Origin: Candidatus Eiseniibacteriota bacterium
GTDB lineage: Bacteria; Arandabacterota; Arandabacteria; Arandabacterales; Arandabacteraceae
Direction of reading: 5' to 3'
Length of the DNA stretch: 19,798 nucleotides
NCBI GenBank assembly: GCA_043810925.1
Contig: JBDRNT010000064.1
Coordinates: 1-19,798, forward strand
Part shown: positions 1 through 8,912 of the stretch, piece by piece
Position numbering within the stretch: position 1 is the first letter of the stretch
Layout of the letters: every line of letters starts with the position of its first letter
Made by a program: the position numbers and the translations under genes
The notes under the pieces: generated by a model
What the model was told of the DNA's origin: nothing
Database searches by the model: none
What the model saw: the letters and a program-made list of their open reading frames with translations, nothing else

Positions 1-71
1 CGCCCATCGCCTTCCACAACACCAATACGGGTGTTGCTTGAATGAACATCCAATCCACCGTATAATTCCAT
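1..71 (-). CDS. IS110-family (DEDD) transposase/recombinase, N-terminal 23 codons; continues off the left edge
   Basis: Manual translation from ATG at 71 gives MELYGGLDVHSSNTRIGVVEGDG, matching the IS110 N-terminal YxG(L/I)D(V/L)H motif with the first catalytic Asp. SD AAAGGAGG lies just upstream. Not in the ORF track. Confidence 0.8.
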   Translation of the reverse strand, partial: MELYGGLDVHSSNTRIGVVEGDG

Positions 72-161
72 AGGGCACCTCCTTTGGTTGGTGGTAAACC
101 AGAGCATACCAGAGAGAAATCTCTCTTGGAATGCTCTGGAGGTGCCTCTTTATGATTATCA
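1..161 (-). mobile_element. IS110-family element, left end (non-coding end ~72-161); inferred boundary at TGA 159-161
   Basis: Transposase start plus ~90 nt of nested stems: 74-82/138-146, 99-107/131-139, 109-117/120-129. The junction interrupts one arm of a local inverted repeat. Confidence 0.65.
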
Positions 162-243
162 GAGCTAAAAACGTGCGGGCCCGGGGTCTGACCCCCACCA
201 GTCACTTTTTTAGCTCTGACCCCAAGGTTTCTTGACCCCAAGG
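159..243. repeat. REP-like cluster of TGACCCC motifs
   Basis: Palindrome GGGGTCTGACCCC at 183-195. Perfect 13-bp inverted repeat TCAGAGCTAAAAA (159-171) / TTTTTAGCTCTGA (207-219). Direct repeat TGACCCCAAGG at 217-227 and 233-243. Confidence 0.7.
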
Positions 244-248
244 GTTTT

Positions 249-2696
249 TTAGGAGCCGGCCTCCGTGTAGCCAGACAGATAATCCATCTGCTCAATCGGC
301 ATGAGCGGCATCGGCTCACCGTTGTGTTCCATCCGGAACTTGATGTGTTCAATCAGTTCGTTCTTCTCATACTTGATACCAAAGAGCTTCGGCATGAAGA
401 TATTGGGGTCGAAGAGCGGCACCTCGGGCATCTCCACTATATCTATCTTCTCATCCGCGGCAATACCTGCCTTAGCCTTCGCGATCTTGATCGCGGTCTC
501 AAGCCCACCCAGCTCGTCTATCAGGCCATTCTTCAGGCCGGCGGAACCCGACCACACACGGCCCTGACCCACTTCGTGGATCTCGTCATACTCCATATGC
601 CGGCCCTTTGCAACTTTCTCAACGAAGTGTTTGTAGAAAGTCTTGATGCTGTGTTCCACCTTCGAGCGCTCATCTGCGGTGAGGTTGCGATCCGGCACCT
701 GGCCGAGCAACGGTAGTGAGATCCCGAAGCCAAGATCCGCATGCTCGCCGATTTTCACCACATCCGTAGCCATGCCCAGCTTCTCCTTGATCCCCTTGTT
801 ATAGAACCACCCGCCGATCACGCCGATCGATCCGGTAACCGTCAGCGGTGAAGCCACGATCGTGTCCCCGTACATCGAAATCCAGTAGCCGCCACTCCCG
901 GCAACCATGCCCTGTGAGACGATTACCGGCTTCTTCTCGGAGCACTTCATCAGCGCGTCCGCAACCACATCGGAAGCGGTAGCACTGCCACCCGGCGAAT
1001 CAACCCGGAAGACCACGGCCTTGATATTGTTGTTGCCTGCGACCCCGTCAATCACCTTCGAAAGCGACCGCGCCTTAATGCCCTGGTCCATCGCGCAGAC
1101 ACCGAGGGCGTATATGAGTGCGACCTGTGGCCGCTTGCCCCAGTAATCGTCATGTGGGAGCCGGTACTTCGCTATGCCGCCGGGGCCCATCATGCCCTTG
1201 GCATCACCCTCAAGCGTCTCGATCGTTTTCTTTACGGCCTCCCAGCGACCGAGCGTATCAACCAGACCGGCCTCCAGGGCTTCCTCGGGCATGAAGAAGA
1301 GGTTTTCGTTAACCATCCGGTCGAACTCCTCCGGCGCAATTCCGCGTCCTTCAGATATCTCGGCCCTCATCTGGCCGTAGAAGTCTTCAAGAATCGCGAG
1401 GATCTGTTCTTCATCCCCCTCCGACATGCTATCCCTCGCAAAACCCTCGTATGCGGACTTGTACTTAAAGAAGCGCCACTCATCGAACCCAATCCCCAGT
1501 TTCTCCAGAGTGCCCTTGAGATAAGTCCGTCCGAGTCGCATACCCGGTAATGCTATCTCGCCGGTCGGGTCCATGACGATCTTGTCTGCGACAGACGCGA
1601 AGTGATAGGCGTACAAGCCCGCATCATCGACAAACACCACGACGTGCTTCCCGGCGGACTTGAAATCCCGGAGCTTTTCGCGGACTTCCCAGGCCATTTC
1701 AATACTCGCGAAACGCATGTCTGATGTATTTATGGCAATCCCCGCGACGGTCTCATCTTCTTTGGCGCCATCTATGGCTGAGAGCAACCCTGCAAGCGTA
1801 TTGGATTTGTCAAACATCTTGTAGCGTTGGTACTTGGTGAGCCCGGTTAGTTGGAGGTCCACATAGCGATGCCTTCGGTTCATAAGAGGTGTAAGAACGT
1901 TCCGGTCCATTGCCCCGAGCCGGACGCCATAGGTGTTGTAACCATGCACGCGCTCGTCGTCGAAGTGGGCCTGGCTTGCGAGCCCCATGTCACCGAGGCT
2001 GAAGTTGAGCCCCAGGCTGAATCCATGCGTATCGAAGTAGCGGCCCGTGAGGCGAATTCCTGGCAGGAGCTCGAGTGCTGCGCCTGTGCTCCAGTGACCG
2101 TCCTTTGGCTTCTCACCATTCTGAATGGCATAGTCCCCGAAAACGGCCACGACTTCATTGCCCAGCGGACGAACTGCGAGGTCGAACACCCCCTCCTTCG
2201 CACTTCCGGCTGTTGCAAACGCACCGGTTAGACCGACCGACAGATGAGGAATCGGCCGCGTAAGTGAACCTACAGTCAAGACCCTACCGCGGTTATACTC
2301 GCTGATGCTGCCCGCCGACCAGCCGTAGCCCACACCGAAACTCGAGCTCCGGTCACCGAACGCCAGCGATAACCTGTAGTCCGTCACGGCCCCCAGAGAG
2401 TCCTTGTTGCGGATCATACCGAAACCCATGTTGGGCGTGGGAAGTCCCGCAAATAGACCCCACCTGTCGAAATCGTTCCACTCGCCGGAAGCGTCCGACC
2501 AGGTGAACAGGATGTCCGGCCGCTCGACGTACTTAAGCAACGCCGGGTTAGCATACCCGTACAGGCCGAACCCCATTCCCCCCGGTGAGGTCAGGAGAAA
2601 ATCATTCTGACTGTGATAGGGCGGGATAACAGGACCGGCAGATGCCGTCAATGCTGATATCGAAAATAGCAACGTCAGGGCCGCGACCAATCTCAT
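249..2696 (-). CDS. sppA: Signal peptide peptidase SppA (protease IV, S49, tandem domains) with signal peptide and extra N-terminal beta-strand-rich domain
   Basis: KYKS (catalytic Lys region), RVDSPGG, GSGGYW (catalytic Ser), TGSIGV and GRVWSG motifs. Start moved to Met23 (2696) because AAGGAGGT precedes it and a hydrophobic signal peptide follows. Confidence 0.9.
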   Translation of the reverse strand: MRLVAALTLLFSISALTASAGPVIPPYHSQNDFLLTSPGGMGFGLYGYANPALLKYVERPDILFTWSDASGEWNDFDRWGLFAGLPTPNMGFGMIRNKDSLGAVTDYRLSLAFGDRSSSFGVGYGWSAGSISEYNRGRVLTVGSLTRPIPHLSVGLTGAFATAGSAKEGVFDLAVRPLGNEVVAVFGDYAIQNGEKPKDGHWSTGAALELLPGIRLTGRYFDTHGFSLGLNFSLGDMGLASQAHFDDERVHGYNTYGVRLGAMDRNVLTPLMNRRHRYVDLQLTGLTKYQRYKMFDKSNTLAGLLSAIDGAKEDETVAGIAINTSDMRFASIEMAWEVREKLRDFKSAGKHVVVFVDDAGLYAYHFASVADKIVMDPTGEIALPGMRLGRTYLKGTLEKLGIGFDEWRFFKYKSAYEGFARDSMSEGDEEQILAILEDFYGQMRAEISEGRGIAPEEFDRMVNENLFFMPEEALEAGLVDTLGRWEAVKKTIETLEGDAKGMMGPGGIAKYRLPHDDYWGKRPQVALIYALGVCAMDQGIKARSLSKVIDGVAGNNNIKAVVFRVDSPGGSATASDVVADALMKCSEKKPVIVSQGMVAGSGGYWISMYGDTIVASPLTVTGSIGVIGGWFYNKGIKEKLGMATDVVKIGEHADLGFGISLPLLGQVPDRNLTADERSKVEHSIKTFYKHFVEKVAKGRHMEYDEIHEVGQGRVWSGSAGLKNGLIDELGGLETAIKIAKAKAGIAADEKIDIVEMPEVPLFDPNIFMPKLFGIKYEKNELIEHIKFRMEHNGEPMPLMPIEQMDYLSGYTEAGS

Positions 2697-2728
2697 GTCC
2701 TTACCTCCTTTTTGAGCAGCGATTTTAC

Positions 2729-2757
2729 ATACTAACCACTGATTGAAAACTTGTAAA
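2729..2757 (-). promoter_or_regulatory. Putative sigma70 promoter for sppA
   Basis: TTTACA-N17-TAGTAT on the minus strand, about 30 nt upstream of the start codon. Confidence 0.4.
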
Positions 2758-3098
2758 GCCATTCAGGTGCGCCTGATTGAGTGAAGCCAGGCGGACGCGA
2801 ATGGACGGAGACATCCAGGTGAGAACATCGCAAAGTCCGTGCCACGGATCTTCACATGAACAACCCCTCTCATGTCCCGCGCAATGGGACTAACCGTCAG
2901 ATTTACCGGGCACTTAGCATCGCGGGAAGAATCCCGCCCTAAATCCGGTCGGCGCACGCGGGCGGATCGGCTTCTCCGTATGTGTCCAAGAGACACACAA
3001 CTGTGGGAAATGCGCCCTCACCATCGCCACACGGTGCCAACGACGGAACATGATCCGAGCCGGGCACGCCTCGCAGCCCAGCCAGGCGAAAATGGATG

Positions 3099-6818: not shown

Positions 6819-8912
6819 CTATGTCTTCTCCCTGGCCTTGCGGCGAGCACTTACTATGTCTTCTGCAAGGGCATATGGCACTGCCTCGTAACGCTCGAAA
6901 TGCATGCTGAATTCACCACGTCCGCTGGTGGCGTTTCGCAGTTCGGATGCATATCCGAACATGTCCGCCAGTGGTACACGGGCCGTGAGGATACAGGTTT
7001 TGCCCTTTGCTTCCATGTTGACTATCTTCCCGCGCCGCGAACAGAGGCTCGAGGTGATGGCACCTGTGTGGTCTTCCGGCATTACGACTTCAACGCTCAT
7101 CACGGGCTCCAGAAGCTCAAGACCGGCCTTCTTGCAGGCATCGCGGAAACCCGTGGCCCCGCACTGGCGGAATGCTTGTTCGGAGGAGTCAACGTCGTGT
7201 GCCGAACCGTCGAATATTGTGACTTCGATGTCTACCATTGGAAATCCGGCATATGGCCCCTCTGCCATGATGTCGATAATCCCGCGCTCAATCGCCGGGA
7301 GGTATTCGCGCGGAATGCGGCCTCCGACAACCTCGGGCTTGTAACGGAGCCCCGAACCGGGTGTCCCGGGCTCGACCCGCATGCAGACATGGGCGTACTG
7401 CCCGTGGCCTCCTGTCTGCTTGACATGCTTGTGTACGTGCTCAACCGAACCTATGATGGTCTCGCGATATGCTACCTGGGGTTTGCCAACCGAGACGCCG
7501 ACGCCGAATTCGCGCCGCAGCCGATCGGAGATGACCTCAAGATGGAGCTCCCCCATGCCGGATATTATGACCTCACCGGTTTCAGCGTTGCTCCTGACCG
7601 TAAAGGTCGGGTCTTCCTCGGCAAGCCGGGCCAGCCCTCTACCAAGCTTGTCGCTATCCGCCCGGCTTTCCGGCCTCACAGCCACTCCTATCACCGGTGC
7701 CGGAAACTCAATCGATTCAAGCACGATCGGGTGATCTTCTGAGCAGATCGTGTCCCCGGTGTGTGTGTCTGCAAGTCCGATCACGGCCCCGACATCTCCG
7801 GCGTGCATGGTTTCGCATGCAAGCCGTTTGTTGGCGTGCATCTCGAAGAGACGGCCTATACGCTGCCTCTTGTCCCTGCTGGAGTTGTAGACAAACTCCG
7901 CCGACTTGAGAACGCCTGAATACACACGTACATATGTGAGTTTACCCATGTGCTTGTCTGCCTGGACCTTAAAGGCGAGAGCCGCAAGCGGTGCATCATC
8001 ACTGGGACGACTTATGATCTCGTTCCCTTCGCCGTCACGCGTGCCAATTACAGGGGGTCTGTCCACGGGAGACGGAAGATAGTCTATGATGGCATCAAGC
8101 AGCCGCCGTATTCCCTTGTTTCTGAGCGCCGCGCCACACAAGACGGGAATAATCCGGCCGTCGATGGTGGCCTTGCGCATAGCCCTGACGGCATCATCCC
8201 GCTCAGGAATCTCACCCTCGATGAACTTCGCCATCAGGCGATCATCTTCCTCGCTGATGCGCTCAATCATGACCTTCTCGGCCTCGCGGGCTTTCTCAAG
8301 CAACGCTTCCGGGATTGCTTCTTCCCTGATCATTATCCCATCGGGTGTATCATCGTAGTAGACCGCTTTCATGTCCACGAGATCGATGATGCCCTCGAAA
8401 TCAGATTCTGCACCGATCGGGATCACCACCGGCACGACATTGGCTCCGAGCTCCCGCTTTATCTCTTCAACGACCCCCTCGAAGTCGGCTCCCGTCCGGT
8501 CCATCTTGTTTATGAAGGCTATGCGTGGCACCTGGTACTTTTCGGCCTGTCGCCACACGGTCTCGGATTGGGGCTGAACACCGCCCACGGCGCAGAAGAG
8601 CGCGACTGTTCCGTCAAGCACACGCAACGATCGTTCCACCTCGGCGGTGAAGTCGACATGGCCGGGGGTATCAATGATGTTGACCCGGTGGCCATTCCAG
8701 TAGGTCGTGGTGGCGGCCGAGGTAATCGTGATGCCGCGCTCCTGCTCCTGCACCATCCAGTCCATGGTGGCCTCACCATCATGAACTTCGCCCATCCTAT
8801 GACTCTTGCCCGTGAAAAAGAGGATCCGCTCGGTCACGGTGGTCTTCCCCGCATCGATGTGGGCCATTAAGCCGATGTTACGGATCTTGCTTATGTCTAC
8901 TTTCTGAGCCAT
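6819..8912 (-). CDS. fusA: Elongation factor G (copy outside the rpsL-rpsG-fusA-tuf operon)
   Basis: [47 protein letters not shown] and LLEPVM motifs. Start at Met38 (8912) after GAGAGG gives 697 aa. Confidence 0.95.

Follow-up and report, generated by a model that had tools for sequence, protein, structure and literature searches.

We found that the first 158 bases of the DNA analyzed here very probably form the left end of an insertion sequence (IS) of the IS110 family that is active, present in multiple copies and RNA-guided and has an IS1111-type layout: subterminal inverted repeats, a transposase of about 339 amino acids and, downstream of its gene, an extended non-coding region. The window, by which we mean the whole stretch of 19,798 nucleotides, is the first 19,798 bases of contig C64 of the source genome (hereafter G000, 185 contigs). 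The element is truncated at the contig edge, because the window begins where C64 begins and the minus-strand open reading frame leaves it leftwards. The element is of an ordinary kind, and its one unusual point is that the window copy sits in a REP family that differs from that of its sister copies. RNA-guided IS110/IS1111 elements that target REPs are well known, and the main use of the finding is to annotate the edge of a contig.

An initial annotation of this DNA, made from its letters, had placed an IS110 element at the TGA of a TGACCCC repeat that it called REP-like. All of the strings on which that proposal rested are present in the window. The minus strand at 149-172 reads TTTTTAGCTC-TGA-TAATCATAAAG, the intact arm lies at 207-223, and TGACCCC recurs at 189-195, in the loop region of the hairpin, and at 233-239. 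Read outward, the left end (LE) of the IS runs ...GGAGGTGCCTCTTTATGATTA, and on the IS strand the element begins TAATCATAAAGAGGCACCTCC. The coordinates of the features are collected in Table 1.

Table 1. Features at the truncated IS end, the adjoining REP and the neighboring gene (window coordinates unless a contig is named).
Feature	Position	Strand	Remarks
Left end (LE) of the IS, cut by the contig start	1..158	-	sequence recurs at 6 contig ends
Transposase, first 23 codons (MELYGGLDVHSSNTRIGVVEGDG)	3..71	-	includes the first Asp of the DEDD motif
Subterminal inverted repeat AGGTGCCTCTT	140..150	.	8 nt from the LE tip
Core TGA, common to IS junctions and target	159..161	-	second copy at C52:133-135
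REP hairpin	162..223	.	interrupted arm 162-171 (GAGCTAAAAA)
Intact arm and head	207-223		TTTTTAGCTCTGACCCC; unoccupied second target site
Two tandem 16-nt units, TGACCCCAAGGTTTCT and TGACCCCAAGGGTTTT	217..248	+	between the REP and the S49 peptidase stop codon
S49 peptidase gene	249-2762	-	837 aa, two S49 stretches (PF01343, 2.9e-61), resembles SppA

To count the copies in G000, we clustered its contig ends and searched the genome by BLAST with window 1-260, which gave two clusters. The first cluster has eight ends, and six of them hold the window sequence up to ...TATGATTA-TCA; these six LE copies are at the starts of C64, C95 and C87 and at the ends of C124, C151 and C60. The end of C45 and the start of C78 were rejected as LE copies, as their matches cover the REP only and the IS is absent. 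The second cluster represents the other end of the IS (right end, RE) and comprises nine ends, on C115, C124, C151, C162, C163, C29, C37, C45 and C52. Every one of the nine reads ...CCTATTGACAGGTGCCTCTTAATGGG-TGA-CCCCA (...AATGGG-TGA-CCCCA) before the sequences diverge. The order along the IS strand is left flank, TGA, TAATCAT...TTAATGGG, TGA and CCCCA. These six LE and nine RE junctions bear out the proposed insertion at the TGA of a TGACCCC repeat, with boundaries at 158/159 and 161/162 in the window.

Genome-wide, the RE-tip 11-mer occurs only at the nine contig ends, and the LE-tip 10-mer occurs at the six junctions, in two related remnants (C26 and C101) and in four unrelated matches. The subterminal repeat listed in Table 1, read outward, recurs 6 nt inside the RE tip on C52 and on the eight other contig ends, and the G000 element thereby has the subterminal inverted repeats that PMC11187229 gives as a hallmark of the IS1111 group. 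Over the 56-138 nt that they hold, the LEs of C87, C124, C151 and C60 are identical to the 161-nt LE of the window copy, and that of C95 differs at 1 of 161 nt. The 132-nt RE of the window copy (C52) is identical to those of C29, C163, C162, C115, the start of C151 and C45, and the unpaired RE ends at the start of C124 and on C37 each have two bases different from it. This multi-copy IS accounts for 15 breaks in the assembly.

G000 also contains LE remnants of related elements that are 80-95% identical (C99:10607-10704, C101:16936-17096 and C26:16608-16645). They sit at AGACC-TGA and TGACC-TGA sites and lack a matching transposase gene; the remnant on C26 is followed by a different IS110-family gene with an internal TAG.

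We asked what kind of repeat received the element. Folding window 155-250 as DNA gave a hairpin at 159-219 with an energy of -23.4 kcal/mol (z = -5.6). Sites of the type AGCTC-TGACCCC number 79 in G000 against 0.69 expected and are the most abundant type, followed by AAGCC-TGACCCC with 58 (also 0.69 expected) and AGACC-TGACCCC with 22. One of three Y1-transposase genes in the genome, C15:6403-7284, scores 84.3 bits with NF047646 (REP-associated tyrosine transposase, RAYT), whose cut-off is 80. It is bracketed by inverted copies of the TTTTTAGCTCTGACCCC arm, two per side (C15:6275-6330 and 7295-7340; L130). The repeat is thus a short imperfect palindrome with many intergenic copies and with a RAYT gene flanked by inverted copies of its own arms. 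We conclude that what had been called REP-like is a true REP in the classical REP-RAYT arrangement.

At least three REP families with different palindromes and one head, CTGACCCC, are present in G000 (the AGCTC, AAGCC/GAATTC and AGACC types counted above), and a fourth REP type, GGTACC-TGACC, occurs at a contig end of C6. The common head may be a RAYT recognition feature. The two further Y1-transposase genes are on C14 and C115, and the one on C115 is flanked by a different repeat (TTTCGGTGACACC...). In the window, the REP and the IS lie immediately downstream of the stop codon of the S49 gene. A genome of the same genus (G001) has one 16-nt unit where the window has two. Right flanks often carry two tandem TGACCC(C) units 11-16 nt apart, as on C124, C151, C162, C163 and C45 and at window 217-248, and such units are also found in relatives from other phyla (L060, L079, L083, L089 and L117).

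The open reading frame at the window's left edge begins with an ATG at 71-69 of the minus strand, preceded by a GGAGG Shine-Dalgarno sequence at 76-80. The Shine-Dalgarno region (GGAGGTGCC on the IS strand) is perfectly complementary over 9 nt to the LE subterminal repeat (window 74-82 and 138-146), which could occlude the ribosome site in a transcript; the motif also occurs near the right end. In the 23-aa fragment, 20 of the 23 residues are identical to the N-terminus of P0001, the closest near-full-length relative. P0001 matches PF01548 (3.3e-16) and PF02371, and it scores 167 bits with NF033542, "IS110 family RNA-guided transposase", for which the cut-off is 140. The relatives L012 (PF01548 at 1.7e-14) and L040 match PF01548, PF02371 and, above the cut-off, NF033542. 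The fragment from the window, which is too short for such a search, matched no Pfam family by itself. The proposed check of the family with IS110 HMMs thus succeeded for the relatives, and the assignment of the G000 element rests on relatives whose ends are 78-87% identical, the full ORF of the window copy and its PF02371 part lying outside the assembly. LE-like ends that are 78-95% identical were found in metagenome and relatives' loci with IS110-family transposases.

When P0001 was aligned to IS621 (8wt6; E = 6.5e-8), its GLDVH fell on GIDTA, and the Ser of the ESG motif of IS621 aligned with the Ser of MSN in the relatives, where Asn follows and not Gly. Full-length relatives come from a genome of the same order (L012) and from metagenome contigs, and their proteins are 339 aa long. 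The gene of the relatives is preceded by about 90 nt of non-coding sequence, and some 390 nt follow it in L012, L028 and L035. In the window copy the upstream region measures 87 nt (72-158), and downstream sequence, partly assembled, is seen up to 144 nt. A short upstream and a long downstream non-coding region, together with subterminal inverted repeats, make up the IS1111-group layout as given in PMC11187229. Other IS110-family matches in G000, on C26, C44, C88, C59 and C65, were set aside as different elements; the gene on C26 starts GIDVAK.

We then searched for the interior of the element, which comprises the greater part of the transposase gene and all of the target loop. No G000 contig holds it, and among 18 genomes of the phylum and 41 relatives nothing was closer than 80%. 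A pattern scan of metagenomes returned 22 contigs, none with the interior of the G000 element; the closest were L024, with 95% LE identity and only 680 nt of the element, and L040, with 87% and the last ~43 nt missing. A scan of viral contigs gave 0 matches. Three sequencing runs contained small shares of the window's words and, compared with L040 at 80% likeness, yielded only short diverged pieces. A genome-collection scan found no protein above 66% identity; the clade comprises 576 confirmed loci among GTDB species representatives. Rfam 15 contains no family that matches L012 or window 1-1662. Among the listed titles of papers on TGACCCC and insertion sequences, none concerned this element, and a named relative may exist in ISfinder or in the supplements of PMC11187229. 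The interior of the G000 element lies outside the assembly, and we presume that the window copy carries an intact transposase and guide. Its first 23 codons and Shine-Dalgarno sequence are intact.

Evidence on the guide comes from the relatives. Directly after the stop codon, all of them have one structured module. It opens with an outer stem and ...GAACC, followed by a stretch that varies; TGG-loop-CCA and two more bases lead to a 5-mer, also variable, and then to TGA and TTGG, after which the stem closes. The initial annotation had looked to the joined ends for guide loops; in the relatives the loops lie instead in this non-coding region. The stem structure was set by eye and its pair counts were then tested on the alignment: 87.7% of cells pair, against 30-50% with the partners slid, both partners have changed in 12 of 17 stem pairs, and such values were reached in 0-1 of 500 shuffles.

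In the module, the 5-mer of the loop and the TGA after it repeat the element's own left flank and TGA. The left guides are AGCTC in L012, GTACC in L028 and L035, GGATC in L029, AGAAC in L027 and, by eye, AGTGG in L034. Both flanks were available for 57 elements; no loop was picked in five of these, and the other 52 gave 42 distinct guide/flank combinations. On average the left guide matched 4.12 of 5 bases of its own flank and 1.86 of 5 bases of the flanks of other elements, and none of 10000 permutations reached the observed mean (n = 42). The match to the own flank was 5/5 in 18 combinations, 4/5 in 15, 3/5 in five and 2/5 in four, the last class including L034, which was mis-picked and is 5/5 by eye. 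Because positions -6 and -7 carry no signal, we take the left guide to be 5 nt plus TGA.

The bases that precede TGG are complementary to the right flank, as with CTGGGGT and ACCCCAG in L035, CGTAGCGTTG in L034 and GCGGGGACA in L033. This right-guide signal is modest, weaker than that of the left guide but significant, and its register shifts by one base among subgroups: 3.25 of 6 bases matched in the own flank and 2.51 of 6 in others, with 0 of 10000 permutations reaching the observed value (n = 36). In the relatives, the complement of the top strand appears to lie 5' of the complement of the bottom strand, which is the order described for IS1111-type seekRNAs in PMC11187229. Farther downstream lies a donor guide, an 8-mer followed by CTGGTGCA. 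Among the 17 loci in which this context was found, it reproduces the last five bases of the RE (ATGGG) in 16 of 17, and its junction triplet, TGA or TGC, is matched in 15 of 17, including two TGC cases. Its motif is also present in G000's own RE (ATGGGTGA, end of C29). A search by eye for a right donor guide, the complement of the LE start, gave none that was convincing. The guide layout (left 5 nt + TGA, right ~6 nt, donor ATGGG+TGA) can be read from sequence, and it provides a rule for target prediction in hundreds of elements from uncultured bacteria.

We propose that the element moves by RNA-guided DEDD/Ser recombination. A seekRNA or bridge RNA encoded just after the transposase gene would carry a target loop, whose 3' strand would repeat the five bases to the left of the insertion point plus TGA and whose 5' strand would complement the right-hand bases (ACCCCA). 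Recombination would take place at the TG(A) common to the IS junction and the target, so that TGA would come to flank both sides without true duplication. The target in G000 would be the CTGACCCCA head common to several REP families. The window copy entered an AGCTC-TGACCCCA arm of the REP that follows the S49 peptidase gene, and its other end lies on C52. A promoter would form only in the excised circle, from TTGACA in the RE, a 17-nt spacer and a GATAAT -10 made of the core GA and the TAAT of the LE. We infer this circle-specific junction promoter from a -35-like TTGA[CT] hexamer: each of the 70 loci with an RE (80 examined) has one, ending at a distance of 14-17 nt from the RE tip.

None of the copies elsewhere in the genome sits in unrelated sequence and all RE flanks are TGACCCCA, but five of the six left junctions lie at GAATTCAAAGCC-TGA (AAGCC-TGACCCCA), a site of a different REP family. 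The window copy is alone in lying at TTTTTAGCTC-TGA, in an AGCTC-TGACCCCA arm. AGCTC and AAGCC have just 2 of 5 positions in common, and base pairing by itself does not account for both sites. Occupancy does not settle which site is cognate: five AAGCC sites are occupied against 58 free (5/63) and one AGCTC site against 79 free (1/80; Fisher p = 0.087).

On balance, we think that the element behind the five AAGCC copies also made the window copy, as a "half-match" insertion in which the left guide was mismatched. It is also quite possible, although we say so with some reserve, that the element has an AAGCC-fitting left guide and entered AGCTC-TGACCCCA through the right guide and the TG(A) core only, perhaps with the REP stem-loop. 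If so, the real specificity determinant of the clade would be the CTGACCCCA head common to several REP families, and mismatch tolerance would let one element colonize several of these families without guide reprogramming.

Alternatively, a variant with guide AGCTC could have made the window copy by inserting on target, its sisters having guide AAGCC, so that two sub-lineages of one IS track different REP families. Such variants do occur: L012 has guide AGCTC and sits at GAGCTC-TGA-CCCCG, and in one MAG two guide variants of a single IS each match their own flanks (L050/L052 and L051/L053). The AGCTC type is moreover the commonest site in G000. However, the guide-differing sub-lineages in that related MAG, which has six copies, diverge at 38-48 of ~1515 positions and at 7-9 in the first 162 nt, whereas the 161-nt LE and the 132-nt RE of the window copy equal those of the AAGCC-site copies at every overlapping base apart from the single nucleotide in C95. 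A guide variant would thus require three of the five guide bases to have changed without any other change in the ends. Two precedents bear on the half-match reading: the MAG copy L054 is one base from its sister yet sits at a site matching 3/5, and the near relative L040, with guide TGATC, sits at TTTTTTAGCTC-TGA, also a 3/5 match. Given the near-identical ends and these precedents, we favor the same element at a left-mismatched site and consider the guide variant unlikely.

We compared the window with G001. This genome is collinear with window 233-2764 and then directly with G000 contig C52 from base 197. C52 opens with the other IS end, ...CTCTTAATGGG-TGA-CCCCACTAG, and TGACCCCACTAG follows the right end. 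At the orthologous place, G001 holds the uninterrupted palindrome GGGGTCAGAGCTCAAAATTTGCACGCG...CGCGTGCAAATTTTGAGCTCTGACCCC, ending ...TTTTGAGCTCTGACCCC, with the uninterrupted site GAGCTCTGACCCC. From the synteny of C64 and C52 and this uninterrupted site, we conclude that the empty site was ...GCTCTGACCCC with one TGA, exactly as the initial annotation had predicted; its further prediction, that CCCC would resume beyond the far end of the IS, is realized on C52, which is joined to C64 through this synteny. The element itself gave 0 matches in G001 (86% complete). The other five LE ends likewise pair with five RE ends by synteny with G001 (C95-C115, C87-C29, C124-C163, C151-C162 and C60 with the start of C151, in addition to C64-C52). 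For these five AAGCC copies G001 was usable for pairing only, as it has other REPs or none at the corresponding places.

Were there no real insertion, the contig edge would show either an IS end on its own or a chimera of the assembly. Such a reading would fit a contig that stops 158 nt into the element and a genome in which solo related left ends occur (C99, C101 and C26). We regard this as very improbable, since six LE and nine RE ends that are identical or differ at one or two positions are the usual sign of a collapsed multi-copy repeat, all six LEs pair with an RE by synteny, and the start of the gene is intact. The ends of the paired copies are identical save for the one nucleotide in the LE of C95, and G001 lacks the element, which points to recent activity.

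The initial annotation had also proposed a core of TGA, or else of TG or GA. TGA stands for G000, where it is found at 6/6 LE and 9/9 RE junctions and once in the empty site of G001, but in the wider clade only TG is shared. The LE starts with TGATAAT in 58 of 61 clade loci, and the right-junction triplet in 69 loci is TGA in 31, TGC in 18, TGT in 9 and another in 11. Only TG is generally common to both junctions across the clade, a pattern that is not a target duplication and agrees with the short shared core of IS110 elements, with left and right triplets that often differ. The alternative of a common 3-bp target-site duplication, left by a transposase whose protein itself would recognize TGACCCC with no RNA guide, is hardly credible. 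G000 does show TGA at both junctions of every copy and one TGA in the empty site, as a 3-bp duplication would, but the clade's triplets are often not duplicates, the triplet after the RE is specified within the element's own non-coding region (TGC matching TGC in two loci), the left flank covaries with the internal 5-mer, and the proteins belong to the RNA-guided IS110 family. TGACCC is the right flank in 23 of 69 loci, with relatives in several phyla.

We compared the element with known systems. Judged by its relatives, it resembles IS621 in being a DEDD + Ser recombinase with an aligned catalytic Ser, at the weak protein similarity given above, and it resembles IS621 and the IS110 group in having separate target and donor guide loops and a short core shared by donor and target. 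The natural targets of IS621 are reportedly REP elements. Its core is said to be CT, and its RNA is said to lie 5' of the gene with a guide order reversed relative to the clade described here. In our analysis, all members of this clade came from uncultured bacteria.

With the IS1111-group elements ISEc11, ISPa11 and ISKpn4, as described in PMC11187229, the element shares the subterminal inverted repeats and probably, to judge from its relatives, also the size of the transposase (~339 aa) and the extended non-coding sequence downstream of it, and in that group too each element has its own site-specific target. It differs from that description in its ends (TAATCAT... and ...TTAATGGG), its TG(A) core, its left guide of 5 nt + TGA and its Ser motif, which is SN and not SG, TG or TA. 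In Pseudomonas putida, ISPpu9 and ISPpu10 are multi-copy IS110-family elements in REPs or conserved intergenic stem-loops, according to PMC12288879 and 10.64898/2026.03.19.712850, and for ISPpu10 the latter reports a stem-loop beside the target that adds specificity. The left half-site here is likewise an arm of a REP hairpin. Compared with the ISPpu elements, the host phylum and the sequences are different, and the G000 copies occupy two REP families whose left half-sites are not alike.

Half-match recombination by IS621, in which insertion occurs at sites matching half of the guide, is reported for cell-free and engineered systems in 10.64898/2026.08.31.748434. By analogy, this could account for the window copy, a natural one, whose right half and core would match and whose left half agrees at 2/5 with its sisters. 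The half-match reported for IS621 and the stem-loop determinant reported for ISPpu10 would fit the left-mismatched insertion. What is apparently one element in two REP families offers a natural test case for the mismatch tolerance of the recombinase, which is otherwise not known to be under study except with engineered IS621.

Several minor observations concern the turnover of REPs and of IS ends. The places in G001 that are orthologous to three AAGCC-type insertions (L138, L140 and L141) hold other REPs, some of them nested, such as an AGCTC-type REP within a GCAAGCC-type REP, and L143 and L145 hold no REP. Since these places differ in their REPs, REP content turns over quickly between species of the genus. 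L012 and L030 carry a single element and have an identical left flank (GCATTTTGAGCTC-TGA), and the right flank of L030 is CGCCAATC... and not TGACCCC, which suggests a rearrangement between copies or a chimeric contig. At seven loci (L059, L064, L065, L068, L069, L076 and L097), the last 14-15 nt of the RE (TGCC...AATGGG) are tandemly duplicated just outside it, as though this end had itself served as a target or had stayed behind as a footprint.
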